NCBI RefSeq assembly: GCF_024521635.1
Contig: NW_026250403.1
Span: 1-64,000, forward strand
DNA length: 64,000 bases
Source: Tricharina praecox
Lineage: Eukaryota
Direction: 5' to 3'
Positions 1,046 to 47,804 of this stretch are shown one piece after another; position 1 is the stretch's first letter, and each line of letters starts with the position of its first letter. A model generated the notes under the pieces. It worked only from the letters and a program-made list of their open reading frames with translations. It was not told where the DNA came from and made no database searches. The position numbers were made by a program, and so were the translations under genes.

Positions 1046-2609
1046 TTAGAAGGCAGGGCTAGCGTTGGTCAACAGCTGCTCGAAGTAAGCCTGGAACCAA
1101 GTTCCAGCCTCAGGAGCGGGCTTCAGGGCGTCGCTGAGGCCACAGTGGGAGTCGTAACGGGTAGCGCTGGTGTCTGAAGTACCGTCGGACTCACCTCCGG
1201 GCTTGACCCAGACGAAGGCATCGACGGAAGCGTGTCCGGTGTCGCTGGTGGGCCTCATGCCGAAGCCGGTGCCGATGGCATTGCACCAGTCACCCTGCAG
1301 GAGCTGGCCGGTGGGCTGCTTTCCACTGCGGCCCTGGTCGACGATGTGGTGGGTGTCGGTCCAGCCCTGTCCGGCGAGCGCGGCGGTGACGGCCTCGACG
1401 TAGCGCTTCTCGTCGCAGTTGGGGTTGGGGGTGGTGTATGAGGGGCTGTGAGGACGACAAGATCAGTATAAATCTCTCGAGAGAAGCGCAGAGGGAGGAA
1501 GTGAAACATACCAGGTAGCGAGCGACCATCCGTTGTAGTTAGCGACGTTGGTAGCGAGACCACGGAGGTTTGCGGGGGAACCGGCATCCTTCCAGATCTG
1601 CGCGTACAGGGTCGCGGCACCGGGAAGGTTGGCGGGCCAACCTAGCCATCCTCCGTGACCACCGTCAATGTACATGGACACGTTGGGCAGGGCGAGCTGC
1701 TTGATGGCGTAAACTGTGAGAGTCTTGTACGTCTCGGCGGCGTTGGCACACTTGGTGACACCCATGTTGGTGACCATGTTGGCCAGGGAATCGGGCTCGA
1801 TGACGAGGACGATGGGGATGTCGGAGAAGTCGAGGAGCGTCGCGCGGATCACATCGATGTACTCGGTCTTGTAGAGCGCGGCACCGCCGTTGGCGATCGA
1901 GAGTTCACCGTTGGATGCGGCGGCAGCGCAATCACGGTCGGGAAGATCGTAGACGACGAAGGGGACGATCACGTTCTTGGCGCCGGAGGCACGGACAGTC
2001 GTGAGGTAGGTGCGCATGCTCGGGACCTTGGCGCGGGTATCGCTGTACGAGTGAAGCGTTAGTTATTGCTACCATAGCTGGCGAGGGCTTTAATTTGAAC
2101 TTACAGCCAAGTGAACGAGGGGACATTGGCAACCTTTGCGGCAGCCGTGGCGAGGGCAGTCTTTCCAGCGGCGACCAGCGACGGGACGGCGATGCTGGAG
2201 ACTTCCGAGGCGTAGTAGGGGTTTGCCCACTGGGTCTTTCCGGCGAAGGGGTTTCCAGTGGCCGTGACCACGGGGGCAGAGGTAACTCCAGATGTGACAA
2301 CCGTAGTCGAGGGTCCGGCAGAAGTCGGGGTGGTCGAAGAAGGAACGGCGGTGGTGGCTGGGGCGGTGGTGGCCGCAGTGCCGGGAATACACTGGTGGTA
2401 GTCTATTTCCATATATCAGAATACGGCCTATGGTCTCGGTGATCCGAAGGATTTTTGATCAGGTACTCACAGGAATTGATGACCGAACAGGTGTATCCAG
2501 TGACACAGGTCGTGACACCGGTGTAGTTGATACCTCCACACTGCTGGTACGCACCCTGCTGGGCAGAGGCGGCAGCGATCATGGCGGCGGCGAGGAGAAT
2601 GCTCTTCAT
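1046..2609 (-). CDS. cbh2: Secreted GH6 cellobiohydrolase II with N-terminal CBM1 (~455 aa, 4 exons)
   Basis: Exons 2609-2471, 2402-2105, 2042-1512 and 1445-1046 join in frame. Signal peptide MKSILLAAAMIAAASA, CBM1 QCGGINYTGVTTCVTGYTC...YYHQC, a Thr/Pro linker, and GH6 motifs VVYDLPDRDCAA, IEPDSLAN, GHGGWLGW and WVKPGGESDG. Confidence 0.96.
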
Positions 2610-2731
2610 TTTGGAAAAAGTGACTGGACTGTTTGGTGGTCTGCGGTAGCCGGAGAGAATGAATGTATGGCTCAGTGAATGTAGTGGCTGCTGCGGATGA
2701 GGATTCAAAGTGGAACGGACGGTCCAATGAT

Positions 2732-3115
2732 CTTATATACCGTGAAGCCTACGATATAGACAAAATCAAGCCATCGCGCTCGGAGTCCATCCTCATCCGC
2801 AGGCCTCGCGCAATTCCGGGGCGAAGATGGAGTTGATCCGTCTAAGTGACGTGAGTGAGAAGTCAATGGGACGAGGGTAGGAGTGCACGTCAATTTGGGG
2901 AGACAGGGAGCGTTGAGGTAGCAGATATATTGGACCGCTAGTGGAGTACTATGCCGGTGGGCTAAATCTGCAGGAAGAATGGGCAACACCATGCGCATCA
3001 ATCTTCCGCACCTAGCATATGCGAGATTTCGGAAGAAGGAGGCTGTAGGGTAGGCGGGGTAGCGAGGCGTGAATCCGGGGACACCCTCACGTGGAGACAG
3101 GAACGCGGTGGGGGC
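2732..3115 (-). promoter_or_regulatory. Putative cellulase promoter: TATA box, XlnR/Xyr1-type site and CreA-type sites
   Basis: TATATAA on the minus strand at ~2733-2739, ~125 nt upstream of the ATG. GGCTAAA at 2960-2966. SYGGRG matches at ~2815, 2941, 3054, 3075, 3091 and 3108. These motifs are short, so some may be chance matches. Confidence 0.4.
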
Positions 3116-4893: not shown

Positions 4894-6006
4894 CTACCAC
4901 TGCTCACTCTCAAAGTACTCCTTCAGCGAACGTGGTGCCTCCTCCAGCAACTATCGACAGTCAGCGTTTATTCCTCATATTTTCACACAAAAAAAAACAC
5001 GCTCTCTTACCTCGATCGCGCTCGTCAAATTCTGCTCAGCATTGGCCCCGAAATATTTATAATCACGAACCAACAAGAAATTCTCGAGCATCTCCTGCGC
5101 GATCTTCTCGTTTGGCAGGAAGCCCTTCCACACGTCCGCCGGCGGCTCAGCGTACTGCGCCTTCTTGCCCGTCACCTCCTTGAAGGTGTCGACGATCTCC
5201 TGTCCGCTCCACCAGCCACTGGCGGCGAGAACATTGGCGTTGAGGAGTTGCTCGCGGTGGAGCAGGATCGACGCCACGAATTTGCCCGTATCCGTGCCGG
5301 CCGAGAAGAGTGGGAACTTTGTGGACGCTGGAACCGGCCAGGCGAGTGTGTACGAACCATCCTCACCCTACGCATCATTGTCAGTACCTATATGCCCGAG
5401 TTGGTTTTGTTGAGATGGGGAGATTGACCTTCTGCATTGCGCTCTTGAGGTTGCTCATGTAGAAGCCGGGGACAAAACTGGTCATGGGGACGCCCAACTC
5501 GCGGATGTAGGCATCGATCTCGGCCTTGCCGTCGAAATGCTCGACATTCGGAAGTGCGCCGTTGCTGAGGGTAGTGACGTTTGGCAGTGAACTCCAGACC
5601 AAGTGTTCAACGTTGAGCTCGGCGGAAACTTCGGCGATGTTGCGTCCTTGTTTCACCTCGGTCTCCTTCGACATGGTTTCCCAGAAGTTGGTGACCGCAA
5701 AGACGGCATTCGAGCCCTTGATGGCGGTGGCCAGCGATGACTTGTCCATCAAGTCCGCCTAAAGTCAACTTGTTAGCAGTGCGCGGGATAACCGGTATGT
5801 AGGAACATAGTAGTTTTTGGGTGGGGATATACCTTGACGACCTCGACGCCCTGGTCTGCCAGAGCCTTACCGGAGGGTTTGGACGGGTCCCTAGTGATGG
5901 CGCGGATGCGGAATTGCTTCGAGAGCTGGGGGTGCCCGAGAACGGTCCTGATGACGGAACCACCCTGGTTTCCAGTCGCACCGAAGACAGTAAGAAGTTT
6001 GCTCAT
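4894..6006 (-). CDS. NmrA-like (atypical SDR) NAD(P)-binding protein (~305 aa, 4 exons)
   Basis: Exons 6006-5833, 5758-5429, 5367-5011 and 4950-4894 join in frame. Motifs VFGATGNQGGSV, RAITRDPSKP, VFAVTNFWE, HFDGKAEI and PGFYMSN. Confidence 0.92.
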
Positions 6007-6072
6007 GGCTGCTGCTGTTATTGGTTTTGCTTGTTTGTTTGTTTCGTTGTTTGTTTGGTGTAGAGCGATCGG

Positions 6073-6106
6073 AATGGTATGGTATGGTATGGTATGGTAT
6101 GGTATG
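6073..6106 (+). repeat. (ATGGT)n microsatellite in the NmrA 5' region
   Basis: About 6 tandem ATGGT units. Confidence 0.85.
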
Positions 6107-6758
6107 TTACTGAAGCTATTCGGACGTTTACGGGGGTGACGAGCTCTTGTTCTTATGCGAAGTCGAGTCCACCGAGATTCCCACCGCTCGAGATCGACCG
6201 ACGCCGCAGCAACGTAAGTGTCATCATGATATCGCCATTCAACATTTCTAAGCAGAACTTTCCGCATGTGCAGACGTGAGGAGAATCCAAACCGGCGCAC
6301 GCGAAGCCACCCAACGCACGGTGGAGAAGAGTTTCACCGGCCAACCCATGCTGCCGCCTTTCCCCGCAAAGCCCCACCGCACGAGAGTTGCCGTAAACGG
6401 CCTAGCTAGCCGTACAAGGCCGACCCTTGCTCACCCATTTAAGGCCGGCTGTCGCTCACTAAGCGTCCGTGACACGTGCAGTGCGGTCGCCAGAATTGCC
6501 CGCCGTGGGCTCGGGAGCGACCACTGACCAGTGGCGACTCACGAGTCAGTTTCGACCCAGTCCTCAATCCTGAGTAACTGCTATAGACAGCCACGGCCTG
6601 CAGGCTTCCTACCTATCTTCGGCGTATATAGGAGTCCAGACGTCGTGGATCGTGTTCCGTAGCACTCGCCGCCTCGCCCCCTCGCACGCTCGAGAATGAC
6701 TACATAAGGAAGCAGCCGTCAAACAGTCCCGTCCAGCTGCCAGCATCCAGTTGCCTCG

Positions 6759-8718
6759 ATGTCTTCTTCCGCCTCTCCTCGCCCGAGGCCTACCACAAGC
6801 TGCCTAGTCTGCCGGAAGCGAAAGGCAAGTGCCGTCACACAGACTCATCCCCCACCTCGCCCGCCCACGCGCTCCTTCAACCTTCATACTTCCTGTATAG
6901 CACTGTAGTTACTATAGACTATCTATCTTCCGTTCCTAACACTCGCTTGCCGTGTCCAGGTGAAGTGCGATCGCGTCCATCCTACCTGCGGAAAATGTCT
7001 GCAGAACGGCCTGCGCTGCAAATATGCGGCCCCGGGCACCAAGATCCGCTTCGTCGACGGCGATCCGAGCAGGCTCGCTCACCGTCCGCTGTCGAACGGC
7101 CTCGAAGATGAGCGCGAAGAGTTACAGCTTTTTCCTCCTTCACCTCTTCCTCCCCCTCCTCCGCCTCCACCTCCGCCTCAACGCTCGGGGCCGGACCCGC
7201 AATCTCTCGACGCTACGCAACGGACAGATGCCATCTTCAGCGGTGGCCGCTACCTCGGCGGTGTCTTTTGGGGGCTTGCGAATGATGGCAATCCCGTTCG
7301 TCATGGACTCCTGCTGTCCCCACTCACGCACTGACGGTACGTAGGATGATGTGCAGCGTCTGATATACGCCACTTGTGACCCATCCTCCAGCTACCTCGC
7401 CATTGACCTTGTCTTTTCCTCGTTACCGCCGCGTCACGAATGCGACGCGTATTTTGACGCCTTTCTCACCAGCATCAATCCAATCTTTCCGCTTGTCGAC
7501 AGCACATGGGTAACGCACTGCTACGCTTCGTTGTGGACGTGCACTACTGCCATCGAGTCTTCCGAGCTACTCCTCATCGTCGCAGTTCTCCACGCTGGCC
7601 ACATATGCACCACACCGGTTTCCACTAGCCCTCTAGATAACCTGTTCAAAGGTCTTCTGTCGGGCAGCACGTTTGAAAGTGCGCCAAATCTACAGCTGCT
7701 ACAGGCATTCACGCTCTACCACTCCTCGAACGTATGCGAAGCACTGCCTCTGAGTTCCTACACCTTCCTTCCGGTTGCTGTAAGGACGGCCCAGCAGCTG
7801 GGTTTACACACCGCCACCGCCTGCGACCTTCGCCGGCGTCTGTGGTACCACCTCTTGTACCTCGACGTCGAAGCCTCCATTGCCAATGGCCTTCCCCGGA
7901 TAGTGCACGAGGGGGACTACGACTGTCCGCCGCCGGTCCTCCCCGACCTCCAACCCGCCATGGCCCTCGCGCTCCAAGCACGCTGGGAGTGGACCACCAA
8001 CATGCAGCGCTGGCTCCGGCAATCGAACTACGACGCCGAGCTCGAAGCCTTCACCCTCCACTGCCGCGACCTTTCCCAGAAAGCGGCGGCGATCACCGGC
8101 GATACTTGGGCGCGCGACTTCATCCTTCTACACCCACCGCGCGCGCGCTGCGTCCTCTCCCACCGCCAGCTGCGAAAAGGCCCCTGGCGGCCGATGGCAA
8201 GCCACGAATCGCCCGTGCACGCAGCCTCGCGCGAGTTCCTGCGCACATACATCTCCCTCGCTACGGTCGATGGCTCGCCCTACCAATGGTACCTTCCGGG
8301 ACTAGTGCATCCACTACACGCCGTCATCATCCTTCTCCTACGTATGGAGCAAGCGTCTCACATACTGCTTCCGGAGTGTCCGGACAAGGCCCTACTAGAG
8401 GAAGCGTTTGCGCTAGTCGGCAACCGTGTGCTGCGCGGGCGGCTGACGCCGCAGACGGCGGGGCGCCCAAACACCGACGGAACCGTCTGGATCTACTGTC
8501 TACTCGGGAAACTGAAGCGGCGCGTGTGGAAGAAATGTGGGTGGAAAGGTGGCTGCGAGAATAGTAGGTTCTGTCTGCTGGGGATGGACGAGGACGAGAA
8601 TTTTATGGGGCATGCAGAGGATAAGATGAAAACGACAGAGGTCGTCGGTGATAGTGCTGATGGATTAGAGTTTAGCTGGGAGGAGTGGGATCAGATGGTT
8701 GAGAAGTTTTTTGTTTGA
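6759..8718 (+). CDS. Zn(II)2Cys6 transcription factor with fungal TF middle-homology region (~591 aa, 3 exons)
   Basis: Exons 6759-6824, 6960-7295 and 7345-8718. The spliced binuclear cluster reads CLVCRKRK|VKCDRVHPTCGKCLQNGLRCKY. The MHR contains INPIFPLVD, AVRTAQQLGLH and RRRLWYHLLYLD...GLP. Intron 1 has a GC donor. Confidence 0.92.
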
Positions 8719-8900
8719 TTGTGGTGGCTTTACGGACAAGAGTATCGATGATATACCAATGTATCCAGCGAAGATTTTTTGCGAAGTTGTTTCAGCTCTC
8801 CTTGAGTTCTCATTCGCACTCACACACACCTTGTGGAAAAATGAATGTAGTCACAAGGATACCATTCACGAGTTCATTTGAACTAGGTACATGATTCCCA

Positions 8901-11217
8901 TCACAGCTTAGCCCTCACCTCCCCCTCCTTCTCCACCTCCACCCGCTTCCCCACCTCAGCCTCAAACCTCGCAGCCAAGCCCAAGACGACATCGTCCATC
9001 CTCTCACCCCCCACTATAGTGACCGAGAACGGCAGTTTTACGCCGGTGGCAGCGTCCACATAAGTTCCGGCAGGAACCGCAATCGCACAGAGATCCAGGA
9101 CGTTTCCGAAGTGCGTAAACGTGCCCAGCAGGGAATTCTCGCCGATGGGATCGTTCGCTACCTCCCGCATCGTGGGGTGTGCCGGCGCCGTCGGGACGAG
9201 AAGCACGTCTATTCCCTGCGGGGAGAAGATGGCTTGTGATTTCCGCCGCAAACTATTATGTGTCGGGCGGGGTTACTCAACTATACCTATTGGTAGTGGG
9301 AGGGAGGAGGGGGCTCACCTCATCATGGAGTGTAAATCGCGGTAAACATCCTCCGCCGTTGACCCGCGTTTCTTGACCGCGGCAAAGATCTCGCGGATGA
9401 CGGGGTGCAGCTCGTCCTGATGCTGGTCCGCCCATCCCCTCGGCAGCCCGGCCAACCGCTCTGTCACAAAAGTGCCATCGTACAGTAACTTCCCCGCGGC
9501 CTCGAACACGGGCCATATACTCTGATCGCTCACGAGTTCTCCGCCCATATCCCGCATGCACTGCACCGCGGCGGAAAACAGCTGGCGGTACACGCCCGAA
9601 CACACGCTTAAGCTCTGCTCACTGGGCACAGCAAACCTAAACCCGCCCTCGATTTCAGGGAAGGCATTAACCCACCTCTTTACCGCGGGCGCATGCTTCG
9701 CCATCCTATCCCTTTTGTCAAACCCTTTTGTCAGGCGCCACAGCTTTCTCGTGCACGCCACAGTGCGCGCAGTGTACGCGATGCAGTCGAGCGACTCGCA
9801 CGCCGTCACCACGCCGCGGAAGCTAATCGTGCCCTTTGTTGGCTTGAAGCCCACGACGCCGTTGAAGCCCGCCGGGACACGGCCGGAGCCTGCAGTGTCC
9901 GTTGAGACGGCGAAGGAGGCCAGGCCCGAGCTCACGGATACGGCAGAGCCGGATGAGGAGCCGCCCGGGATGTGCGTGGCTGAGAAGGGGTTCGGTGGGA
10001 TGCCGTGGGGGGACCGACAGCCGGTTAGGCCGGTTGCTAGTTGGTCGAGGTTGGATTTGCCGAGGGGGATGGCGCCGAGGGAGAGCAGGGTTGAGACTAC
10101 GGTGGAGGAGACGGTGGGGGTGTAGGCTAGTGGGGGGCATGCGGTGGTGGTGGGTACACCGGCGAGGTCGATCGAGTCTTTGATCGAGAATGGGATGCCG
10201 TAGAGAGGAGGACGGGCTGTAGGATCTGGGAACGTTTTTTCTAGGGTTCGACAGGTTTCCGTGAGCTGGGCGAGCGGGATCAGGTGGATGAAGATGGCCG
10301 AACGCTGGGGGTGGGCGGTGATCCGCGCGTAGATGGCCCTGACCATTGCGTCCGGCGTGGTTATCCCAGATCTGTACGCTGCTGCGAGGGTGTTTATATC
10401 GAGCGAGTTTGGCGAATCGATTGACCAGTTTTGTGCCGTGGGAAGTGGTAAAAACGATGTGAGAGCCGACTTGATGGAGGAGAGAGTGCAGACGTAGCCA
10501 AACAGGCCGTCAGACCAATGGAGCATATCAAGGCTGGGCTGCTTGAATGCGGCATCGTTGTATCCGGCAGTGCACTCCTCCACCACGCCTGCACCCCCGG
10601 TTAGTTTCCATCGGCGTTGCAAGAACGGAGAGTAACTGACAGCACTGGAATCCGCGGTCATTCGCTTCCCGTACAGTGGTGCTGACACAGCATTCCGTCG
10701 TCACGCCCATCACCACCAGATGGGTCACGCCCATAGCCTGCAGCTCCTCGAGGAGGCAAGTGTTCCAAAACGCGCCCTTGCCGGGTTTATCGATGACAAG
10801 CTCATCCGGGAATGGCGCAACGAGCTCGTGAAGATCGTGGCCATGTTCGCCTCTGATCAGCAGACGGCTTCCAGGTAAACCCTCTTCTCCAATGACCTTC
10901 ACTTTCCCCGGGCTCGAAGACTGACCCACCCGCCACAGCTTGGAAGGAGGGCAGTCGCTCAGGTCTGGAGCATGGCCCTCGCGAGTATGGATGACGGGCA
11001 GTTGGAGATCGCGGAAGAGTTGAAGAAGCTGTTTGCAGGCGGGGAGGATGGCCTGGACGGCTTCTAGTTGCGTGTCTGACTGAATATCGCCAAACCCGCC
11101 TGGGAAGAGGAAGTCCCGCTGGAGGTCGATTGCGAGCAGTGCCGTTCGTGCCAGAGGAGCTTGGAAGGGAAAGGGCTTCGCCGGAATGCTGGCCGCTGCT
11201 GGAAGGTGAGGTGACAT
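8901..11217 (-). CDS. Fusion enzyme: isochorismatase-family cysteine hydrolase (triuret/biuret-hydrolase-like) plus amidase-signature domain of allophanate hydrolase type (~732 aa, 3 exons)
   Basis: Exons 11217-10641, 10588-9319 and 9252-8901 join in frame (2199 nt). The N-domain has a D-K-C triad: IDLQRDF, HTREGH, DKPGKGAF, GVTTECCVSTTVREANDRGF. The C-domain has a K-cisS-S triad: IKDSID, KSNLDQLATGLTGCRSPHG, GGSSSGS, TDTAGSGRVPA, plus LLYDGTFVTER. Confidence 0.9.
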
Positions 11218-12020
11218 CGTGAGAAATGGAAGTTTGGACTGTTGTTGAAGAAAAGGACCTGATTTCTCGGAGTTTTCACCTCAAGACTGTCTCTCGGCGA
11301 TTGATTCGTTCTCCCGGTGCGGTGATAATGATATGACGATCAAGTGTAGTTGCTTTTTTCCTGAAACTCCTATCGTGTACGGAATGCGATCCTCAATTCC
11401 CACCATGCGAGTTTTTCTCGATACTCTAGATCACCCGTCAGTCCGCGGCCGTCGCCCTGGACAATCTTCACATGCGGGTTCGAAAAAAGGAATATACGAA
11501 CGATTACTGGTTGTCTTTCTCGAGTTCGTGCAACACAGCATGATCACGATGACGGTTGTCACGATAAGCCGAAGCCCTAACCCAACTCCCTTCCCCGAAG
11601 CGACTCTGCACATGAAACCTCGCCAATACCCCCCACACTCATGGCTTTCCGTGGGGTATCGGAGGCTTTTCTAGGCCGATGGCAGCCCTGCGGGGTGCGG
11701 CCGTCGGCCCCAGGGGCCGGGCGAAGGCCATTCCACCATTCGTGGTCCACAGGTCGGCTCCGTATCGAAGTTGGTTGATGTGCACTTCCGAGTTCAGCCG
11801 TTCGGTATCAGTGTGGCTTGCTGGGAGGGACAGTATCATGGAGCCGATTGATATCAGGCCCGTTCGGACTGGGCAGCGTGGCCGGTCGAACGTCGCGGGG
11901 ATAACAAACGTGGGCATAAAACTAGGCCACAACCTCCTCGGAGCCTAACGTCCCATCTTGTGCGGTTCTCCGAAATCAGAAGACATTGCGAGCGATTATC
12001 ACCGGGTTTTACCGCACACG
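11218..12020. promoter_or_regulatory. Bidirectional promoter of the fusion hydrolase and the NCS1 permease, with GATA elements
   Basis: The ATGs diverge 803 nt apart. GATAR elements lie at 11323-11328, 11370-11375 (minus), 11562-11567, 11899-11904 and 11996-12001 (minus). CCGTTCGG occurs twice (~11798 and ~11860). Confidence 0.45.
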
Positions 12021-14013
12021 ATGAAGACGTTTCCCTCACTATCAAATCTGGCCCAGCGCGTTCGTCCCCACGTCCGTGCTAAGGTGCCGTTCAAGGTTGG
12101 CATCTACGGCACTGATCCCAGATGGAGCAATGAAGGTGCGTCTCTACCCATACATGTCTCCGACAGAATTTTACCTAATCTCCGGAATCAAAAAAGACCT
12201 GGACCCTGTCCCGGTCAAGGCTCAGACTTGGGGGGGCATAGACTACTGGGCCTATTGGACCAGTGACATGCTGGCACCCCCTCTTGCGGCTACCGTCAGC
12301 ACGTATGCAACCCCTCAATCTGTTGTGGTCGTGGCTTACAGTGACTGCTTAGTGTTATGTCGCTGGGCTTTACGGCTCGGGAGACGATTCCGATCGTGTT
12401 TTTCGGCTTCATGATCTGCAGCATCGTTGTTACATTGACCGGAAAGGTTGGCGTGGAGGTTCCATTCCCGTGGTGGTCTACAGGCTGAGAATGGGCTAGA
12501 TGGGCGCTCAATACCACGTTGCGTATCCCGTGATCATCCGTGCGTCATTCGGCATGTACGGGTCGTATCCGGCCATCATCATCCGTGGTATGTATCTCGT
12601 GTCTCCTACCTCAATGCAGTGTCTCACGATGTTCTACGCCTAGCATTCGTGGCGATGATGTGGACCGCAATCCTGTGCGTGCAAGCCGGAGGCTTCCTAC
12701 AGAACTGCATCGAGGCGATCTGGCCAGGCTTCAAGACGTTTCCGAACCACCTGCCAGCCGATGCCGGTATCGACTCGGCGGGCTTGCTGTGCTTCTTCCT
12801 GTACTGGATCTTGCAGACGCTGCTATCCATCATGCCGATCCATAAACTCCGGCTGCTGTTCCTTGCCAAAGCCATCATCGTGCCTCCTACCTTCATGGCA
12901 CTCTTCCTCTGGGCGGTTATGTAAGTCTTATCCCCCCTTCGCCATCCACGGGATTCATCTGACATCTCCCCAGCGTCACCAAGGGCGGCGGCGAGCTAGT
13001 AACCGGCAAGATGGCCCTCACGACGCCGATGGGGCCGGCGTACTCTGCGCTCACCGGACTCAACGTGATAATCGGGCTATTCTCCAGCATGGCAGTGAAC
13101 ATGCCCGACTTCGGCCGGTTCTCACGGAACCATCTCCGCGGTCCGCACCAATACTTTGCGCTGCCCATCATCGGCACCCTCGGCGCACTGACGCCGATCT
13201 TTGTCACGTCCGCTCACTCGCACATCTGGGGCGAGTTCGAATGGTACATGCCCGCGGTCATTGCGAAGTTTGATTCCCGCGCCGCGAAGTTCTTTGTCGG
13301 TGCGTCGTTCATCTTGGCTACAATTGGCAATCAGATCGCTGCTGGGTCGTTTCCGTTTTCGAATGATATCGTGAGTTGCTCCATCCACTACATTCTCCGG
13401 ACGCTCCTAGCTAACCTACCTACCTCTGCAGTCCGGTCTAGCCCCGCAATACATCAACATCTTCCGAGGCACTCTGCTCATCAGCATCTTCTGCGTGATC
13501 TCCACGCCATGGAACATAATCCGAGCCGCGTCGGGGCTGTTATCGTTCCTATCAGGCTACAGCTGCCTTATGGGCCCCTTGGCCGGAATAATCGTGACCG
13601 ACTACTACATCCTGCGCGGGGGGAAGCTCGACATCCACGAGCTGTACAACGGCACGCCGGCGGGTAAGTACTGGTACACTGGCGGGTTCAACCTACGCGC
13701 GTTTGTCGCGTTCGTGGTTGGTTTTGCGCCGACTATGCCGGGGTTTGCGCGCGCGATTGCGGGAGCGGGGAAGGTAAATGTCGGTGCAGCGTGGAAGGTT
13801 TATACCTTCGCTTGGTTGTTTGGGTTCATGGCGGCGTCGGGGGCGTATTGGGGGATTTGTACTTATATTAGCTCACTGGGTGGGAGCCTGTGTGAGGAGG
13901 CCGTGTTGCCGCCGCATGTGGAGGATGTGCTGGTCGGTGTGGATGATGATGGGAGTGCGGCGCAGGTGGATGTGGAGAAGGCGGTTAGGGTTGTGGAGAA
14001 GGAGGAGGGCTGA
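12021..14013 (+). CDS. NCS1 (Fur4/Dal4-like) nucleobase/allantoin permease (~552 aa, 7 exons)
   Basis: Exons 12021-12135, 12197-12302, 12353-12446, 12500-12587, 12644-12920, 12974-13370 and 13432-14013 join in frame. Motifs RWSNEDLDPVP..TWG..YWAYW, YHVAYPVIIRASFGMYG, NMPDFGRFS, YINIFRG, PWN and GPLAGIIVTDYY. Confidence 0.93.
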
Positions 14014-15364: not shown

Positions 15365-16876
15365 TTAGGCTTCGGCGCTGGTGGGAGGGGTCGGCAGGGC
15401 GGCCGAGGCAACCTTCTTCAACGGCTTCTGCGCATACATGACGTACCTGTTGAACTTTGGATTAGACAGTGATTTTGTAAGGCGGCTGGGGGGGGGGGGG
15501 GGGGGGGGGGGGGGGAGGTGCACGTACTGCGGGTTCCAAACGTGAATCCTACGCTCGGAGATCTCGCGCTTAGTCGCGTCGACCAAGGCTACAACCTCGT
15601 CCAGTTGCATGCCGAGGAAACGGGTGAGCAGCGCTAGAGCGTATGCCTCGAAGCCGCTCATGGCAACGTACCACATCCATTTTCCGAGCTCCTTCTGGCG
15701 CTTGTCGAGGGGCCACAGACCGATCGGAGTCTTGTAGCAGTTCTGGACCGTGTCGACGAAGCCGGCGCCCGAGAGGAGCTCGGGCAGCTTGTGCGCATCG
15801 TTGAGAGAACGACCGGAGCGCTCCGCTGCCTTGTTGACCAGCTGGTAGTAGCGGTAAATCGCGGTTTCGGGTGTGTAGGTACCGTCGTCGCTCTTAACGG
15901 CAAAGGCGTACTCGTACAGCTCAATGTAACCACCCGGCTTGAGATGGCTTTGGAGTGGGCTGTTGTCAGCGACGGATGCTCAGGTTACACTGGGAAGTGA
16001 AACATACTTGAACGCCTGCTTGAGCAACTTTGGCCAGTCCTGGATCCCACCGGCGAGACCACGGATGTGAATCAAGTCGAAGTGGTTCTTGGGAAAGATC
16101 CAATCCTCCTCGGCGTCCTCGACCAGGATCTGGAGGTTCTGGGGAAGCCATCCCGGCTGGATCGGCGACAGGTCCGTTCCCACGACCGTGGCATCGGGGT
16201 ACATCCTGCAGGAATGTGTTCAGCGGGAATTACGCGAAAAGCCAGCTAGCAGCTAAGCTGCCAGTAGATCAACTCTTACTCGGCACAGTCGATGGCCCAG
16301 ATACCAGTACCCGTTCCAACATCGAGGATGTTTTTGGGCTTGATGACTGGGGCGAGATGGAGAGCGCCGCGCATGTGCAGCAGACTCAGATGATGCGCCA
16401 TATCCAGACTGACGGTCGGTTAGCAGAGCGAAAGATGATAGGTGAAGGGGAAGCTAGTTTACCGGTCCTGCTCAGTCTATTCGCATCATCGCCGTAGTCA
16501 ATACCGGTTGAGCGCTCGGGTTAAGGGAACAAGCAGTGGGTTATCACCTCATCGTTCGGAAGCGCATACTTGCCGGAGCGGTAAGCATGGTACCTACGAC
16601 CGTTCTCGTAGGTGTAGCTGTAGATAGACGAGGCCAGAGACGGCGTCGCAGCCTCACTACTGCGCGGTTAAGAAATCATGAAAGCAAATATGGGGGTGGG
16701 AATTTCAGCGCAGCATACTCTCCACTCTCAAAGGCAGAGTCGTAAGGATCAGAATCTTGTCCTTCGTGCTGCACGATGCAAGAGCCGCGTACGTCAGTTA
16801 CAATTCGAATTATCTTGCTTGCGCAGCAAATGAAAACACTTACCCATTCGGTGTCGACCGCAATGGGAGTCTGCAT
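15365..16876 (-). CDS. LaeA-like class I SAM-dependent methyltransferase (8 exons)
   Basis: The spliced product contains YTYENGRRYHAY, LPNDE|TEQDR|LD, ILDVGTGTGIWAID, VVGTDLSPIQP, FDLIHIR, LKPGGYIE, PIGLWP and YAQKP. It includes a 14-nt micro-exon at 16476-16463. Confidence 0.92.
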
Positions 16877-19421
16877 CTTGAGGGAGAATTGGAGCAGGTC
16901 GTGGGGAATGGAGGCCGGGAATGGAGGAGGGGAGGGGATGGAGTGGGGGAGAAGGGAGAGGGGAGAGAGAGGGCGACGAGGAGAAGGAGTGGGGGGAGGG
17001 AGGGAGAGGGTTGGTAATTGTGGTGTGATGTCGGTGGAGCAGGTGTGGAGGTTAGGGGGTGTAAGGGGGACGGGCGAGTTGAAGCAAATGCGGGGCGGTA
17101 ACTTGTAGTTGCGGTTGGCATTGTGTGTAGTTGCATTGTAGATGTAGCCGCAGCAGTTCGGTGGCATCCATTCACGTCAAGTTTCGACCCCTCCCATGTA
17201 GCTGTCAGTCAACCGCCTTAGCTTGCAGCAGCTTCTGCCCGCAGGGGGGTCCAGTTTACTACTAGTAACCGCTCCAGAGTACGCGGAGTGAGCCCCAACT
17301 AACCATCAAGCGCCCGAAAGTGACTTGTTCCCAGTACTAGGAAGTCACTACTGCTTAAGTACTCATGGGGGACCTCCAAGTGCGAGGTAAGTACTTGTAA
17401 CTGCTATGTATAAGTACTTGTTACCCTTTTCCCCGCCAGTAGGATGGATCAGCTGGATGTGCGTCGACGCAATGTATCCGCGATCGAGAAACTCGGTAGC
17501 ACACCCGCCAGATCGCACATACTGATAGGCGGGCGGAGTACTTTGGGTGGGTCCGGAGTTGTGTAGGTGACCGGGATCTAAACCTGATGGGAGCGCAGAA
17601 TTGATAGGTATCTGACCTCCCGGAATGCTAGTGATGCCACGGTCGATATCGCACCGAGTGGGGAGAAGAAGGAAAAGTAAAAGAAGAAGCCGAAGGAGAG
17701 CCAGCGCCGAGGAGAAGCGCGACCGAAAATGATGGCGCAAATCGCCTCGATGGATCTTGAGACAGGTCCAATGACAGGTCCAATAGACAACTAATAGTAC
17801 TCTGGTTACTACCAATAGTACCGTATTTACCATAAGCTCCCCGCCCGTAGCGCCACTTCAACTCTTGCAGATCTCCACCGTCTCCGCTCCGCCTCCGGTA
17901 GTTGAAGTCTCCTTTAGCTAAAACCATCTTCTTAGTGCCTACTCCACGCCAGCTGATGCGTGCTAGAGTAAAGTAGAGCGGGCTAACCCGGAAAACTCTC
18001 CAGGTTCAGCGGGACGGGACACGACACGACACGACGCGAGTGGCACGACATGACGGCAAGGGATCCCAAGATATAGTTAATCCGACTTTGCTCGAGGGGA
18101 CTCTCCTCAGGGGAGCGCAACTCATGTATCCGGGGGCCTGGCGCTCGACCGGGCCTCCAGTTCCACTGGCCACCGCCGGAACGGGCTGAAGAGCCAGCGG
18201 ATAACCCGATCAGTGGTGAACTGAGGCCCGGTAACGAACATACATACTTCCTTACCTATAGGTAAGTAATGTATGTAGGTAGGTGTGATACTACATACTC
18301 TGCATAGTTCCGAGAGTCGAGTACCTACATATTCACATACCTACTCCAGAAGAAGGAGAGCCACGGGAGGAAGCTGGCAGACGGAAGGACACACCCAGGC
18401 TCCAGAGCCCTTCCGAAGCACTTGTAGATGATACCTAGGTGCGATAATGGAGGCTGTACACTCTGACCTATGATCGGTCTCCGAATATTCCTTCTGCTCT
18501 GTAGAATCGTTGAAGTAGGTATGTATGTCCAACTGTGAGTAGGTAGGACTGAGCAAAGACCTCCTACCTATGCATAAGTACCTAGGCGGGTACATGGAGT
18601 AAGTGGAGGAGGTATGTACCGGTAGATAGTATGGTATATGCCGTAGGTCCGCGGCCCCACGTTCGCAGCCCTTCCCGGGTGACTGGCCGCAAGGCCGCGG
18701 CCGATCAGTGACCGAACGAGCAGTGCGCTTTGCGTATATACATAGGGCAAAGGATCGACAAGTCTGGCGCAGAAAATCAACGTGGGGGCATAATATTCAT
18801 TCGCATTCTTGCACGGTATGTACCGTAATAGCCTGATCCTTCCCATCCAAGCGAAAACGATCAGCATCCTCCGCCGCATCCTACATATGTATCCGGCGCG
18901 GCGCCAACGGTTGGAAGCTCCGTAGTTCGGCGCAGGGAGCTGCCGCTACTCTATGTATTATGTAGGTAATAACTAGAACCTGAAGTCTTGAAGGGGATGT
19001 ATTTGGAATGGAACCTGAAGTCGTGCAGTCCTGAAGTGGATGTACCCACGCGGTGCAGAGTAGGTATACCAACTATATCGTATCATCGCGAGACATCGAC
19101 AGATTGACAGCCGAGTGGATGATTACTATGGACATGCGCCACAATTACCGTTAGATACCGTTGCCCCGGCCTTGGGAGCGGCCCGACGGCTGGCCCAACC
19201 ACCAATCCATCCAGTTGTCCTTCCCGAACCCCATCAACCGGTTGGCCAGCTATGCTGGAATACATAGAGTGCATGCTATTACTCTAGCTACCCTAGCCCC
19301 GCAAAAATCATAACCAACCCCAGTACTCCACAGCCGTAACCCTTCAACCCCACCCCAAGAGAAAAAAAAAACTCCTACCAAAATAATTACAACTTTTTAT
19401 CCCAGAACGTCCTCCACCCGA

Positions 19422-28167: not shown

Positions 28168-29928
28168 ATGGTTTCTCTACCGGCAACCATATATCGGGAT
28201 AGGGGATGGAGACAGCGATGGGTGTTGTCGTGAGTTGGTCCCATCCTTATGCGGTGCTTCTGGCGAAGGACGGAAGCGAAGATCGAGCCTGAGAGAAGAG
28301 AAGAGCTGCATCGTCGTCTTGGCGATAACTCCCTCCATCTCCCCCTCCCCCTCGCTCTCACTCCCAGCTTCGGCTATTCATGCAGCAATGGCTTTACTAA
28401 CTTGGGGTTCACGGGAACAATAGATACATCTTCGACTACGTGATAATAGTGTACGTTGACCTCGCTACACCTTGACCGGCACTTCCCCCCCGGTCGCTCG
28501 TCTGCGCTCTCGCTGACGGCTATAGACTCCTCGTTCTCGGCTTCTCGGCGCTAGATCTGGCAGAACCACACCACCAGCGTTTCTCGCTCAATAATGATTC
28601 CCTTCAATACCCTTACGCCGACCCCGAACGTATCTCGCCGCTCTGGGCCGGTGTGATATCAGTTCTCTTCCCGATCATTTGCATCGCCGTATGGAGCATG
28701 GTCATCGACGGAATGTACTCGCATCACAAGCCGCCGACCAACCGGTCTAGAATACTGAGCGGCCCTTGGCAGATGAGTGATAGGCTATGGGAGATGAATT
28801 GTGGTATTCTGGGATTGGGACTGAGCGTTGCTGGAACCATTTGCGTCACGGGCGCACTCAAGAATGCGACGGGCAAGCCGAGACCGGACATCATTTCGCG
28901 GTATGTCCCCCTGGGAAAGCGAGTGCTAGCAGCGCCAAGGCTAGAACACAACTGACGCTTGGGGAACGATAGATGCATTCCGCGTGAGGGTTCGAGAAAT
29001 GCTGCCGTATGGGGTCTGGTCACATCGCAGATCTGCACCCAAACGAATCACCACGTCCTGAAAGATGGCTTCAAGTCCTGGCCTTCCGGACATGCCTCGA
29101 GTACACTCCCCCCCCCCCCCCCCCAAGAGGAAAAAAACCCCCACCTCGCATTAATACTGACAGAGCACAGCTGCATTTGCGGGTCTAGGTTACCTCTCCC
29201 TGTTCCTCGCCGGAAAGCTACACATCATGGACAACCGCGGTGAAGTCTGGAAGACGGTGATCGTCTTGATTCCGTACCTCGCCGCTTCGCTAGTCGCTGT
29301 TTCCCGTATCATGGACGCCCGTCACCACCCGTTCGATGTGCTCACGGGCGCTGCTCTCGGCCTCGGAACGGCCTGGATCTCGTACCGCCAGTACTTCCCG
29401 GCCATCTCCAATTCGCGTGCCAAGGGACGTGCATACTCCCGTCGTACTTGGGGTGCCGACACCCACGAAATGGGTGGTGGTGTCGAGCCCGTCTCCGCCG
29501 TTGAGTACACCAGTGCCTACAACCTGCGCAACATGGAGGAGGGACGCACCGCCTCTTCCGAGAGTCTGGAAAGCGAGGGAAAGACACGGAAACGGATGCC
29601 CGGTGGACAGCTTAGAGGGCCTCGACTGTTTACGGATGTGGGACAGGCACCGCAGGGACACCAGTCGGAGATCGAGTTGATTGCACCACAGCAGAGGCAA
29701 GGCAGCACTGCCGAGCTCTCGCCGAGCCGTGGGAATTGGCCGGCACAGGACAACAGCAACAACAGCAACAACAACAATATCAGAAACCATGATCATGACT
29801 ACAGGGGTAGTGTGGATATGGGAGAGCGGGCTCGGAGGGCAGACGCCGAGAGTCCGGAGAGTGCAGGGCGGCCACTGAGACTAGGGGCGATTAGTCCACC
29901 GCCCGCTGGTCAGGGGTTGGATGGATAG
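28168..29928 (+). CDS. PAP2-family lipid phosphate phosphatase (Dpp1/Lpp1-like; ~449 aa, 5 exons)
   Basis: Exons 28168-28229, 28424-28450, 28526-28900, 28973-29100 and 29171-29928 join in frame. The three PAP2 motifs are KNATGKPRP, SWPSGH and SRIMDARHHPFD. It has multiple TM segments and a disordered C-tail. Confidence 0.93.
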
Positions 29929-30937: not shown

Positions 30938-31219
30938 GCTTTGTTGTGGGGTTGCTGCACGTTTCTTGGATTGAGCTCCAGTTCTTCCACCACCAGCAAG
31001 TCTGATCACCGCCCCCGCCCCGCAACCCTCATCTTCAACCTTCCCCGCATCAATCCCATCAACCGTCAAAGAGACGAAGAGAGTAGCAACTACTAACCTC
31101 CGCATCTTTCATCATCATCAGAACAACCCATCACACCACACCACATCATCAACGGGCCGGTCTTGCAGCAGCACATCAAGCAGCTACCTCACACGCATCG
31201 CGACCGACCGACCGCAATC

Positions 31220-34200
31220 ATGGCCGCCGTCGCTGCCTTGGACGCCGCTGCCGCGAGCACCACCCCGCAAGAGCAACTACTGGACTGGTACAGCACGCGG
31301 CACCCGTTCCGCGTGAACCTGGTGGGCGAGTACGCGGGCTCCTCGCCGTTCATAATCGACGGCGACTCGCTGCTGCGGCACATCTTCTCGGACTCGCGGA
31401 TCGACTTCTCGTCGGGCTTCCAGCTGCTGCACGCCGTCTACGCTGTCGAGCGCTTCCTCGACGACCTCACGAGGCGGAATTGTGTCTTCGATGTTGTCTT
31501 CTTCGAGCAGCATAGACGCGTGGCGGTCCCCGCGTGGAATAGGAGGGGTGCGTGGAAGTATGCGTTTGCTCGTGCGGTCGTCGTTAGGCATCTGCAGGCC
31601 CTGAAGCGGGAGGGCGATCGGTTCGTCTACAGGTTCAGGAGCGTGCGGGATGAGGAGTTTGTGGCGTGGCTGCAGGCGAGGCGGCCGTTGTTTGTGATGG
31701 CGCACGACGGAGAGGATATTCTCGAGGAGGGGATCCAGGAGGAGGTGGTGGCGGAGGGCAGCGAGTCGGCCGAGGAGTGGGAGGTCAAGGCTATGATCTA
31801 TAGGTTTATGCATATGGGACGTGGGTATAATGTGGCGCAGATTAACAGTGTGATATTCTCCGACAGCAAGGTGTGTGCGCTCTGTGAGTGTGTTGTGGAC
31901 GGGCTGCGGGAATGCTGACTTGTGTGTAGATCCTCGCCCTACTCCTCGAGGCTGGACTTCGACGTTCAGATGTCGAGTCGGGTGCCGATTCCATTGACAC
32001 GGCGATCGTCGAGGGCGTCGAGTCGGCCGCGAAGGAGCCCTTGTCGCCACTAGAGTTTGAGAACGCCGACACATTCAACGCCCGCGAACGTCTGACGATC
32101 TACACACTCATCCGATTATTCAAAAACAACTCGGAGGATGTCGCCAAGTTTGCACCGATGGCGTCCGCATACCTCCTGCACACGGCGTTCCTGAACCACC
32201 TGTCGCTCGAGGAGCGGCACCTGTATGCGTCGGCCGAGGACTTGGACGACATCAATAAGACGGCAGATGTCGATGCGTTCCTAAAGTGGTTCTACGCCGA
32301 GGCTACGAGGGTTGTCGAGGACGACGAGGCTCTGCACATGCCCGAGACTGTGCCGCTGTGCGATTTCGTCGATGGACGGCTGCTACTGAAGCTCTTGGCG
32401 CAGAAGGTCGAGGTGCCGGAGGTGGTGGCCAAGGACTTCGAGAGGCTTGCCGAAGCCGTCAAGGCTGCTGTCGAGGACGATTGCACTCTCGAAATCGCTT
32501 CGCCTGTACTTGCTTCCGTCGAGAAGGAGCTGCCCCAGCCAGAGTCGCAGGCCCTCGTTCCCATCCTGCCCTTCAGCAACCCGCTATTCGACCAGCATCT
32601 CGAGAATATCAACATCGACGTCGATGTTCTCCCAGAGGACAACGAGTTCGACGCACAGGTCACCAAAGACCAGTACCGCCCGTTCAAGGCGAAGAAGCCG
32701 TTCAAGGAGGCCGAGAAGCCCGAGGCGCCCGTAAATGGTGGTTACCGGGTGGAACGGAAGCCGATGCTGAACAAGGGTGGTCGGTTCGCGATGGTGGATG
32801 TCCTCGAGAAGAAGCAACAGGGGAAGGTCCGCAAGAAGGATCAGATTAATATGGCTTCCATGCAACGGTACGCTGCTAGTTTGTCGGACTCGCTCGACGG
32901 AAGCTTGAACCAGAAGCTCATCATCTGTGATGACGCTGTCGGCCCTGCAAAGAAGGCGGTGCAGGGACGGCCGGTGAAGGGCAGTGCCAAGAAGGTGGAA
33001 AAGGCTGAGCCGGCGCCTGCCGCTACGGGTAAGCCGGGGAAACAGGTCAAGGCCGGCAAGAAGGAGGTGGTTGGAAAGAAAGAGGTGGTTGGAAAGAAGG
33101 AAGCGGCTGGAAAGAAGGCTCCCGTCCTGTCCAAGGCGGACAAGATTAAGGCCGAGAACGCGGAGAAGGCGGTGCTCAAGGAAGCGAAGTCGCTGCAGAC
33201 ATCGTGGAGGAACCTCTGCAACGAGATCAAGATCACCAAGGATCAGGATCTCGTCATCTCCCGTCTCGACGACCACCAGAAGAAACTTGCGAGTGTTGTT
33301 CCCAAGAAGGTGGCTGACGACCACGAGGGGCGTTTCATTGAGCTCGAGGTGCGGCTTTACAAGATCTGGACGCTGCAGAAACAGTGGATCGCGATGTGCA
33401 AGGCTGGCAAGAAGGAGGATGGATACAATACTGTTGCCGTGCTCTTCGACGAGGCCAGGAAGGCGCTGCAGAGTCCGGCTCTGTTCGCCGCTGCCAAAGC
33501 CATCATCCAGAATGTCTTCGCTGGACTGGGAATTGCGCTGCCACCTGCCAAGGACATTATCCCGGTGAAGAGGACCATCAACTTCACGACCACTTGGACC
33601 GGAAAGGTCGACACCGATGAGTCCAAGCTTGGTATGTCTTCGGAGGAGTTCCAGCTGATGTACTTTGGCCTGTACATGGATCGGAACATGGATTCGGCGC
33701 CGGATGACCGTGTTCCCTTCGAGCCCGATCTCTGGCAGAGACAGGTGCTGGACGAGATCGACGCAGACAACTCGGTGTTTGTCGTCGCTCCTACTTCCGC
33801 CGGTAAAACTTTCATCTCGTTCCACGCCATGGAGAAGGTCTTGAAGGCGGACGACACTAGCATTCTCGTCTACATCGCCCCGACCAAACCGCTAGTCAAC
33901 CAGATCGCCGCAGAAGTCATCAGCCGATTTCGCAAGAATTACCGGCACGCTGGAAAGACCGTGTGGGCTATCCACAATGGAGATTACTTCACCAACAAGC
34001 CGACTGAGTGTCAGATTCTTATCACGATTCCGTCCGTGTTGTCGACCATGTTGATGTCCCCCATGAATGCCAAGAACTGGGCCCCCCGAGTCAAGCGCAT
34101 CATTTTCGACGAAATCCACTCCATCGGTAACGCGGAGGACGGTGTCGTCTGGGAGCAGCTTTGTCTGTTGACTTCGTGTCCCATCATCGCGCTGTCGGCG

Positions 34201-36766
34201 ACTGTCGGTAACGCGGATGAGTTCAGCGATTGGTTGTCGGCTACCCAGGGTTCGCTCGGTATCAAGTTGAACATGATCCAGCACAAACACCGGTACTCCG
34301 ATCTGCGGAAGTTCGTCTACCACCCTCCGAAGGCTATCGGTGCCGAGAGGTTCACCGGACTTCAGAGGATGGCGAAGTACGGACAGATCGATGGAACGCC
34401 GGGCTTGAAGACTATCCACCCCGTTGCTGCACTTGTCGACCCTACCCATGGCATTCCTGACGATTTGGCGCTGGAGCCATCCGACTGCCTTAAGCTTTAC
34501 CAGGCTATGAAGCAGGCGGCGACGCCGGAGTTCCCGATTTCTGCTGATATTGATTACAAGAAGGTTTTCGGTATCATTGGAAAAGTCATCAAGAAGGCCG
34601 ACGTGGTCCTCTGGGAAGCACAGCTGAAGGCGGTTCTGAAGGACTGGATGTTGCAGGCTGACAAGTCGCCTTTCAACAAGGTTGTCGAGCTGCTGCAGAC
34701 CAAGCAGCAGGCGACCGAGGATACGATCGATGTTTCCACAGCTTCGGAGCTCATCAAACACGAAAAGGCGCCGGAGGATCCTAGGCTCGCTAGGGAGGTG
34801 TACCAGGACTGCGATGTGGTCACACTTACACACCTGCGCGAGAAGACGCTTCCATTGCTGTCCAACCTCCATGCGGCCAACTCCCTACCTGCGCTCATGT
34901 TCTCGTACAGCCGTTCGCTGTGTGAATACATCTGCATCAACATCACCGAGCAGCTCAAGGAAGCCGAGGACCACTTCCGCCAGACGGATCCGAGATGGAA
35001 GGCCAAGATCCGCGAGTGGGAGCAGTACGTTGAGCGCCAGAAGAAGATGGGCAACAAGATGCGCAAGCCGAAGCCGGACGAGGGCATGACCAAGTCCGAT
35101 ATGGTTCGCGACCAGGCCGATACCGAGTCCAGCACGCTGGACAATTTCAACCCTGAAGACCCGCTGCCGGAGTTTTCGTTCGCCGACTTCAAGAGGTACA
35201 GTCAGTCTGAGTGGGATCAGGATCTGAAGAACTTGGAGAAGTGGGAGATGCCCTTGCAGCTGGTTGAGGCTTTCAAGCGCGGAATCGGTATTCACCACGG
35301 TGGTTTGAAGAGAGCGTACAGGCAAATGTGAGTGTACCTTCCTTATGGGAGTAGATGGATGGCATGGGCTAACTCTTGACAGCGTCGAGACTTTGTTCCG
35401 CAAGGGATACCTCCGCGTGATCATCGCTACTGGAGATTTGGCGATGGGTATCAACATGCCTTGTAAAACCGTCATCTTTGCTGGCGATCACACGCAGCTT
35501 ACCGCTCTCAACTACCGCCAGGCTGCTGGTCGTGCTGGTCGTCGTGGTTTTGATCTCATCGGAAATGTCATCTTCCACGGTGTGCCACTGGACAGTGCGC
35601 TCCGCCTCATCAGCTCCAGGCTGCCGAAGCTGCGGGGTCACTTCCCTATGAGTACCTCGCTCGTTCTGCGGCTGTGCATCCTGCTCAGCAACTCGAAGGA
35701 CTCGGAGCATGCTAAGACTACGATCAACACACTACTTCGCCAGCCTAGGCTTGTGATTGGCGCCGAGAGCAATCCCAAGCAGGTTCTGCACCATCTGAGG
35801 TTCTCGATCGAGTACCTGAGGCGGAAGAAGCTTCTTGGCGAAGGCGGCAGTCCCCTGAACTACGCGGCTATGGCAGGTCACCTCTATGCTTCCGAGAAGG
35901 GTGCCTTTGCGCTTCACACATTGCTCGTCGAGGGCTACCTGAGCACATTATGTAAGGACTTCGTGGGCGCAGACATCCGCGGCAAGGAGAAGATCTGCGA
36001 GGAGTTTATGCTGGTGCTGTCTCACCTGTTTGTTCGTCGCTACGTACAGCGTGGCCGCCACGGCGTGCGCCTACTCCCGCCGCTTCCCCAGGAGGCGCTC
36101 GACGTCATGAACGAGTGGAACGCTGAGACACTGGCTACATACACCACCTACGTCGAGACGTTTGCGAAGCAGTACTGTACCGACACCCCCGACGCCACTT
36201 TGCCGTTCTCGCAGAGCACCGTCGGTGGCAGTGGAGTGGACCCCGCCTCCGGACGCACCCGCGCTCGTTCCAACTTTGTAGCTCTCTCGGGCCACACCGA
36301 TCGCTTCGCGTCGGTTAAGGACCTTTCCTCGTCGCTCCGCTCCGGCATCTTCTTTGAGGGTTCGGCAGTCCCCTCCCTCGGCTTTGGTGGGAACGCTCGC
36401 CTCAACTCGTTCCTCCTGGACTTTTACATCCACGGCGACACCAAAAAGCTCGCCGTCGAGAACCGCGTCACCCAGGGCGTCATCTGGTACGTGCTCAAGG
36501 ACTTTTCCGACACGCTGGTGACCATCCGCAAGGGACTTATCGCGTGGATCCGCGACGGGCCCGGCGCGTACTTCGAGGTCATGTCGGGTGAGCGCGAGGG
36601 CGAGGAGGGCGTCGATGAGGTCAACGATGAGGAGATTGAGGACGAGATCGAGGAGAGCGAGATGGTTGAGGCTGAGGGTAGGCGTAAGGCTGTCACCGAT
36701 GTGCTCCGCGTCCTGAAGGAGGTCCAGGGTAGGTTCGATGAGAAGTTCAGGCCGATTTATGCTTAG
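31220..36766 (+). CDS. DDX60-like Ski2-family DExH RNA helicase (~1810 aa, 3 exons)
   Basis: Exons 31220-31870, 31930-35327 and 35383-36766 join in frame. The N-terminus NLVGEYAGSSPFIIDGDSLL...FQLLHAVYAVERFL is typical of DDX60 homologues. Helicase motifs: FEPDLWQ, APTSAGKT, DEIH, LSAT, RGIGIHHGG, GINMPCKTV and QAAGRAGRRGFD. Confidence 0.9.
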
Positions 36767-47642: not shown

Positions 47643-47804
47643 TGCTGCTTGCTGCTTGCTGCTGCTATGTTCTTCTTCTTCTTCTGTGATGCTCTGGGAG
47701 GGAGACCAGGTTGAGCTGCGAGGACACTGAGCGGAATGGAAAGAGGAGGGGAGCAGTCATCCTTATGTATGCGAGCGAGTGTGCTCGCGCATCCCATCCC
47801 CACT

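Follow-up and report, generated by a model that had tools for sequence, protein, structure and literature searches.

A conserved fungal pair of a fused double hydrolase and an NCS1 permease as a candidate module for scavenging ureide nitrogen

Soil receives triuret and biuret with urea fertiliser and, presumably, through the oxidation of urate; degradation of the two has been described in bacteria. Whether a locus of the fungus Tricharina praecox serves a comparable purpose, and which of its genes belong together, is the question addressed here for a window of 64,000 nucleotides (nt), namely positions 1 to 64,000 of contig NW_026250403.1 (assembly GCF_024521635.1). A preliminary description had proposed that an NmrA-like gene, a Zn2Cys6 transcription factor (TF) gene, a hydrolase fusion and an NCS1 permease form a self-contained four-gene cluster for the import and catabolism of triuret/biuret-type ureides. 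Our analysis points to a smaller unit, the fusion and the permease, as a widespread and apparently uncharacterised ureide module that is accompanied by a third, different regulator. No study of the fusion, the pair or the TF was found in the open-licence PMC and bioRxiv literature, and the accessible part of PMC7948467 states of fungi only that trtA also occurs in some of them.

The four genes, with the families, strands and spacing given in the preliminary description, were borne out by intact open reading frames, Pfam matches and spliced RNA contigs (Table 1); none of the four translations contains an internal stop, and the stop codons of TF and fusion, said to be about 180 nt apart, are separated by 182 nt. 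The first TF intron is of the GC-AG type, RNA contigs place the second at 7296-7344, and the spliced TF is identical in sequence to P0212 (Tricharina praecox). All 13 modelled coding introns, as well as one intron in the fusion leader, are spliced out in the contigs of runs X1 and X2, and each of the four genes is therefore transcribed. This evidence consists of assembled contigs of two public runs, the depth of which can neither rank genes nor show co-expression; no run record is labelled RNA, the X1 and X2 contigs being spliced nonetheless, and run X5 is nearly empty. RNA contigs also span the entire spacer between fusion and permease (11218-12020), where the 5' leaders of the two transcripts seem to adjoin at about 11590-11600. 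In that case there would be two upstream ATGs in the fusion leader and five in the permease leader, bearing in mind that contigs cannot fix the starts.

What is grouped beyond chance at this locus is the fusion-NCS1 pairing and not a four-gene cluster. A search with a degenerate motif taken from the hydrolase domain's end recovered 61 metagenome loci, all with that domain and falling into 29 groups at 85% nucleotide identity, in a scan that sampled only this hydrolase subfamily. An NCS1 gene lies head-to-head with the fusion, 0.6-1.3 kb apart, in 36 of the 39 loci having at least 2.5 kb upstream (L030, L063 and L034 lack it, and 22 loci with a shorter flank were left out of the count). By sequence group the pairing holds in 22 of 24 informative groups, a figure that leans positive, since a group was informative if room was present or an NCS1 gene was seen. 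Fusion and permease have consecutive accessions in all six species looked up (Wilcoxina, Trichophaea, Geopyxis, Zopfia, Patellaria and Lophiotrema) and consecutive locus tags in Rusavskia. The closest related locus, L042, shows 78% nucleotide identity to the window across the pair, and the nearest named proteins place the pair's groups in Pezizo-, Dothideo-, Eurotio- and Lecanoromycetes. The divergent permease-hydrolase unit of the earlier proposal stood, and proved to be conserved and to share a GATA-rich promoter. The fusion is also present in the basidiomycete Meredithblackwellia eburnea (P0250), with Ala at position 202 in TrtA numbering. Members of the subfamily in prokaryotes were sought by a motif scan of genome contigs; none of its 16 loci codes for such a domain, although an exact-pattern scan cannot show absence.

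The N-terminal part of the fusion (about residues 11-225) is an isochorismatase-like, TrtA-related cysteine hydrolase with D31, K144 and C177. Its best solved relative is TrtA (6XIX, E 7e-48), followed by Rhodococcus and Rhizobium BiuH (1e-36), and the BiuH model scores 173 bits against 53 for RutB and 31 for nicotinamidase. With AtzF as the nearest solved relative of the second part, the kinship to TrtA/BiuH and allophanate hydrolase that had been suggested holds. We surveyed 267 near-complete domains from 264 proteins at residues drawn from PMC7948467; 52 domains share Trp201-Ser202, in a TrtA numbering carried over from the 6XIX alignment, which covers TrtA to about residue 182 only, and from P0002 by way of its TrtA-type domain. 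All 52 keep D24, F29, F35, E72, K129, K132, E160, C162 and Y187. In the window protein, the TrtA triad D24, K129 and C162 and the contacts F29, E72 and K132 are present as D31, K144, C177, F36, E80 and K147, and the TrtA-discriminating F35, E160, Y187 and A134 as F42, E175, Y202 and an Ala at 134. Other positions have changed: Gln202 is Ser in the subfamily (S218 here), in an ungapped register in many homologues; N41 is Thr/Asp here and Gly in 40 of the 52, with Asn not among the residues listed; I205 is Leu in all 52, and L39 is Gln in 51. According to PMC7948467, Gln202 is supplied by the partner subunit, binds the substrate at its far end and is termed a triuret/biuret-binding determinant, and N41Y or Q202E leaves TrtA less than 10% active. 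The residues suggest that the domain works like TrtA, yet by its defining residues it is not a TrtA member, because Gln202 is replaced by Ser and Asn41 is lost. The residue after S218 (Gln, Glu or Asp in the subfamily) may partly substitute for Gln202.

A midpoint-rooted tree was built from 60 rows, comprising 14 of 74 TrtA-type, 12 of 59 BiuH-type, 17 fusion-type, 12 of 13 sister-type and 4 of 4 Glu/Arg-type domains and a T. praecox gene on contig C39, with the Herbaspirillum TrtA itself not among them. The fungal fusion domains form one branch (100/98), sister to the TrtA-type and apart from the BiuH-type domains (100/99), and a sister fungal branch has mostly Tyr at 202. A structure prediction from a 12-row alignment, with a mean predicted local distance difference test score (pLDDT) of 55 and below 50 in the Gln202 loop, was not used. 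Among the close homologues, the Sphaerosporella model P0014 has Ser for the catalytic Cys and P0065 several pocket changes, possibly through decay or model error.

The second part of the fusion is an allophanate-hydrolase amidase domain (K329, S403, S427) without the C-terminal domain of AtzF. It aligns to 4CP8 (E 2.5e-75) and to 4GYR, and allophanate hydrolase models score 362 and 320 bits, with the next amidase at 173; the AtzF model match ends at position 456 of 600, and the exons scored separately give 362 + 92 bits against a cut-off of 487/511. K329, S403, S427, Y562 and R570 are kept in 39 of 39 full fusions; we take the first three to be the Lys-cisSer-Ser positions and the last two the carboxylate-binding Tyr and Arg, the spacing having been checked. 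The biuret activity of AtzF reportedly supports growth. According to the accessible part of PMC3944691, which gives only allophanate, malonamate and biuret as known substrates of allophanate hydrolase, the C-terminal domain of AtzF is dispensable for activity, and the isolated amidase domain acts on biuret as well as the complete enzyme does, biuret activity being measured at 50 mM. Since truncated AtzF hydrolyses biuret, the gap left by a missing BiuH could be closed by this domain, perhaps slowly. In a sister fusion family (P0236, P0238, P0239, P0241, P0243, P0246-P0248 and P0251) the cysteine hydrolase is kept and the amidase triad decayed; its named members are from the yeasts Sugiyamaella and Dipodascopsis. 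If these yeasts have urea amidolyase, loss of the triad would be consistent with redundancy of the allophanate step. Clonostachys P0233 retains the amidase triad, and Aspergillus californicus P0234 has lost it.

The permease has the NCS1 fold (PF02133), belongs to a distinct Fur-related orthologue group and shares only 30% identity with the canonical Fur gene of the same genome, a paralogue on contig C94. It was aligned to Mhp1 in 59 rows, with pocket residues taken from the accessible parts of PMC13390362 and 10.1101/2022.03.28.486045. The equivalent of Mhp1 Trp117 (Trp141) and the Asn of transmembrane segment (TMS) 6 are kept; Q121 (FurE Q134) has become Leu in 53 of the 59 rows (Leu145 here), N318 (FurE N341) Gly in 55 (Gly351 here) and N314 Gln in 58. 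The protein had been described as a Fur4/Dal4-type carrier, of which the NCS1 family stood and the canonical Fur4/Dal4 binding site did not, its Gln and Asn being replaced. Loss of these ring-binding contacts would fit a chain-like substrate, without naming one, and import of a ring-less compound by an NCS1 protein has precedent (PMC13390362, in its accessible part).

Regulation was approached through 23 regions between fusion and permease, that of the window and one from each group, which are related to one another. They hold 113 HGATAR sites, where 200 shuffles give 48 on average and 63 at most; the density is 5.7 per kb, compared with 2.7 for 34 stretches of flanking sequence, coding DNA included. 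CC[G/T]ACGG occurs in 18 of the 23 regions, those of the window, L042 and the Tuber-like L028 among them, against 3.7 expected in shuffles (highest 9), and is retained in loci without the window TF; at its genome rate, the 8-mer present in the window has a chance of occurrence of about 7% per 803 nt. We regard the motif as a candidate Zn2Cys6 binding site. Among the 17 loci with at least 2.5 kb on either side, 14 (13 of 14 groups) have a Zn2Cys6 factor different from the window TF next to the pair, and this factor was seen in 26 of the 61 loci overall; the three well-flanked loci without it are all Tuber-like, and in a Pyrenula gene model it is merged with the permease. Its single close relative in the T. 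praecox genome, 50-56% identical, is on contig C20, unlinked to the pair and adjoining a P450 gene and a pectate lyase gene. Both have only generic names in Pfam and Atlas; they may belong to the Dal81/TamA family.

No urea amidolyase was found in the genome, where the next amidase stands at 34% and the urea carboxylase model matched its two ends only, and urease is present; the fusion amidase is therefore not there for urea. The only near paralogue of the hydrolase domain, the C39 gene, has the BiuH-type Y35, Y41 and D160, but Glu202 and Arg132. It is presumably guanylurea-hydrolase-like, and might supply biuret hydrolysis in trans.

On these grounds we propose that the two genes form a nitrogen-scavenging module for linear ureides of the triuret/biuret type, a proposal for which our belief and our doubt are evenly balanced. 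Under nitrogen limitation, a GATA factor of the AreA type and a Zn2Cys6 factor would switch on both genes, the latter in T. praecox being probably the unlinked C20 gene, a presumed orthologue of the recurring TF, and not the neighbour. The permease would import the ureide by proton symport through a pocket remodelled for a chain instead of a ring, and the Cys-Asp-Lys domain would free the terminal amide nitrogen as ammonia, with Gln46 possibly replacing the lost Gln202. The N-carboxy product would then lose CO2 spontaneously, taking triuret through carboxybiuret to biuret, and the amidase domain would convert biuret to allophanate and on to ammonia and CO2, full deamination being achieved by one polypeptide. 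If the amidase handles both biuret and allophanate, a separate BiuH would therefore not be needed.

Whether the module also includes its two neighbours was weighed, as the preliminary description had cast the TF as dedicated regulator and the NmrA-like protein as co-regulator. The tight packing (182 nt) and the spliced contigs of all four genes in the same two runs would suit a four-gene regulon, perhaps acquired by recent local capture, and the usual TF, being unlinked in Pezizomycetes, leaves room for a replacement. However, TF and NmrA protein match none of the 61 loci by tblastn; phmmer with the NmrA protein gave no match at pair loci, 26 of which (17 groups) have at least 4 kb on the relevant side, and a profile of nine TF homologues gave two weak matches, both to another TF. 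No TF end is seen in the 741 nt downstream in L042, and among 8000 scored candidates there are at least seven TF homologues, the named ones from Tricharina and Pyronema only, with none from the pair holders Wilcoxina, Trichophaea and Geopyxis. In addition, the NmrA-TF spacer holds one HGATAR in 752 nt, and the promoter motif persists where the TF is absent. The suggested check for co-localisation in other genomes thus upheld the pair and failed to find the TF and NmrA genes beside it, with a different Zn2Cys6 factor there; self-contained cluster, dedicated regulator and co-regulator found no support. We consider a four-gene regulon unlikely, and TF and NmrA-like gene are probably bystanders. 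Separately, a polyproline run in the TF (7135-7184) and a short tandem repeat upstream of the NmrA gene (6064-6115) were noted.

Several points weigh against our proposal for triuret and biuret. The subfamily has Ser in place of Gln202 and lacks Asn41 throughout, and single changes at these two positions cripple TrtA; the amidase's biuret step may be slow, because the AtzF activity was measured at such a high concentration as 50 mM; no canonical biuH or atzH was found in the genome, while a genome search for atzD gave no match with its positive control likewise silent; and CC[G/T]ACGG was found post hoc among many words in related sequences. The same module and chemistry might serve another natural ureide, such as oxalurate, another compound arising from urate or guanine by oxidation, or a carbamoylurea that is longer or carries substituents, a possibility that we take seriously but hold to be less than probable. 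It would account for co-remodelled pockets, that is, for the fixed enzyme changes (Q202S, W201, L39Q and the lost N41) and the permease replacements at Q121, N318 and N314, as well as for yet another residue at 202 in the sister branch and for a module in four classes, beyond the "some fungi" of the accessible PMC7948467 text. On the other hand, no specific candidate is singled out, all scissile-end contacts and TrtA's F35, E160 and Y187 are kept, and the amidase retains an allophanate-hydrolase signature with its three known substrates. Equally tentatively, the permease and the fused double hydrolase may, with a Zn2Cys6 factor of their own, be seen as an unrecognised nitrogen regulon across four sac-fungal classes, acting on a ureide outside the described enzymes and transporters, with matching pocket changes and one polypeptide leading to ammonia. 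That the pair handles a non-ureide amide, such as a degradation product of a pyrimidine or of nicotinamide, or a toxin that is to be detoxified, and does not serve nitrogen feeding, seems improbable: the isochorismatase-like and NCS1 families are broad and the RutB and nicotinamidase models match weakly, but the BiuH and allophanate hydrolase scores, the tree position beside TrtA and the GATA-rich promoter argue otherwise.

The features of the locus, other genes of the window and the C39 paralogue are collected in Table 1.

Table 1. Features of the T. praecox window and the paralogous hydrolase gene (aa, amino acids).
Feature	Position	Strand	Details	Evidence
NmrA-like Rossmann protein, 305 aa	4894..6006	-	4 exons: 6006-5833, 5758-5429, 5367-5011, 4950-4894	Pfam NmrA, RNA contigs
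Zn2Cys6/Fungal_trans TF, 591 aa	6759..8718	+	3 exons: 6759-6824, 6960-7295, 7345-8718	Pfam, RNA contigs
Hydrolase fusion, core gene 1, 732 aa	8901..11217	-	3 exons: 11217-10641, 10588-9319, 9252-8901	Domain models, RNA contigs
NCS1 permease, core gene 2, 552 aa	12021..14013	+	7 exons: 12021-12135, 12197-12302, 12353-12446, 12500-12587, 12644-12920, 12974-13370, 13432-14013	PF02133, RNA contigs
Shared divergent promoter/5' leader region, 803 nt	11218..12020	no strand	HGATAR at 11323, 11370, 11562, 11996	
Intron in 5' leader of fusion transcript, 76 nt	11426..11501	-		Contigs of runs X1 and X2
Recurring GCCGACGG site, candidate Zn2Cys6 binding site	11701..11708	-		CC[G/T]ACGG recurrence
GH6 cellobiohydrolase	1046-2732	-	N-terminal cellulose-binding-module-like stretch	
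Methyltransferase-like gene	15365-17100	-		Read by eye; no Pfam match on exon tested
PAP2 phosphatase	29161-29925			
DDX60-like helicase	31097-36763	+	PIN-like, DEAD, Helicase_C	
P450	38672-39679			
Sugar transporter	45876-47756			
GFO/IDH oxidoreductase	49664-50761			
RING protein	52927-54597			
Stand-alone cysteine hydrolase (L002/L003)	G000:C39:1313569-1314560	-	Adjoins Argonaute gene	

If the module does act on triuret or biuret, a fungal ureide route, in truffles, lichen fungi, black yeasts and Pleosporales, would be added as a one-protein pathway, with functions for both the NCS1 group and the TF, orphans so far. Should the substrate be something other than triuret, the module would point to a natural nitrogen source not yet assigned.

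Compared with known enzymes, the hydrolase domain shares fold family and triad with BiuH (6AZO, 6XJM), whose product allophanate would suit the fused amidase. Of the residues that define BiuH it shares just one; unlike BiuH, it has none of Y35, Y41, D160, T187, V205 and Q202, stands on the other side of the tree and scores 173 bits on NF050097 (with a query short of the domain's last 35 residues) against a cut-off of 370. The amidase domain is like AtzF (4CP8) and the allophanate hydrolase part of yeast urea amidolyase (5I8I) in keeping the triad, Tyr and Arg, whereas the C-terminal domain is absent and the partner is a cysteine hydrolase, not urea carboxylase. Algal BiuH-TrtA double-domain proteins (P0002, P0024) are likewise eukaryotic fusions with a TrtA-type domain, but they have no amidase part, and their residues are those canonical for TrtA and BiuH. 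The permease resembles Fur-type NCS1 proteins (Aspergillus nidulans FurA/D/E, yeast Fur4/Dal4) and Mhp1 in fold, TMS3 Trp and TMS6 Asn, and differs from them in the replaced TMS3 Gln and TMS8 Asn. Herbaspirillum sp. BH-1 and Rhizobium offer a further close parallel in their triuret pathway, which according to PMC7948467 comprises TrtA, TrtB, BiuH, AtzF, an ABC transporter and a GntR regulator. As in that pathway, a TrtA-like hydrolase with the same triad and most pocket residues is linked to allophanate hydrolase and an importer; unlike it, the fungal module is one fused polypeptide with no BiuH alongside, with Gln202 replaced by Ser, Asn41 lost and Leu39 replaced by Gln, and it relies on an NCS1 instead of an ABC importer and, as proposed here, on Zn2Cys6/GATA control.

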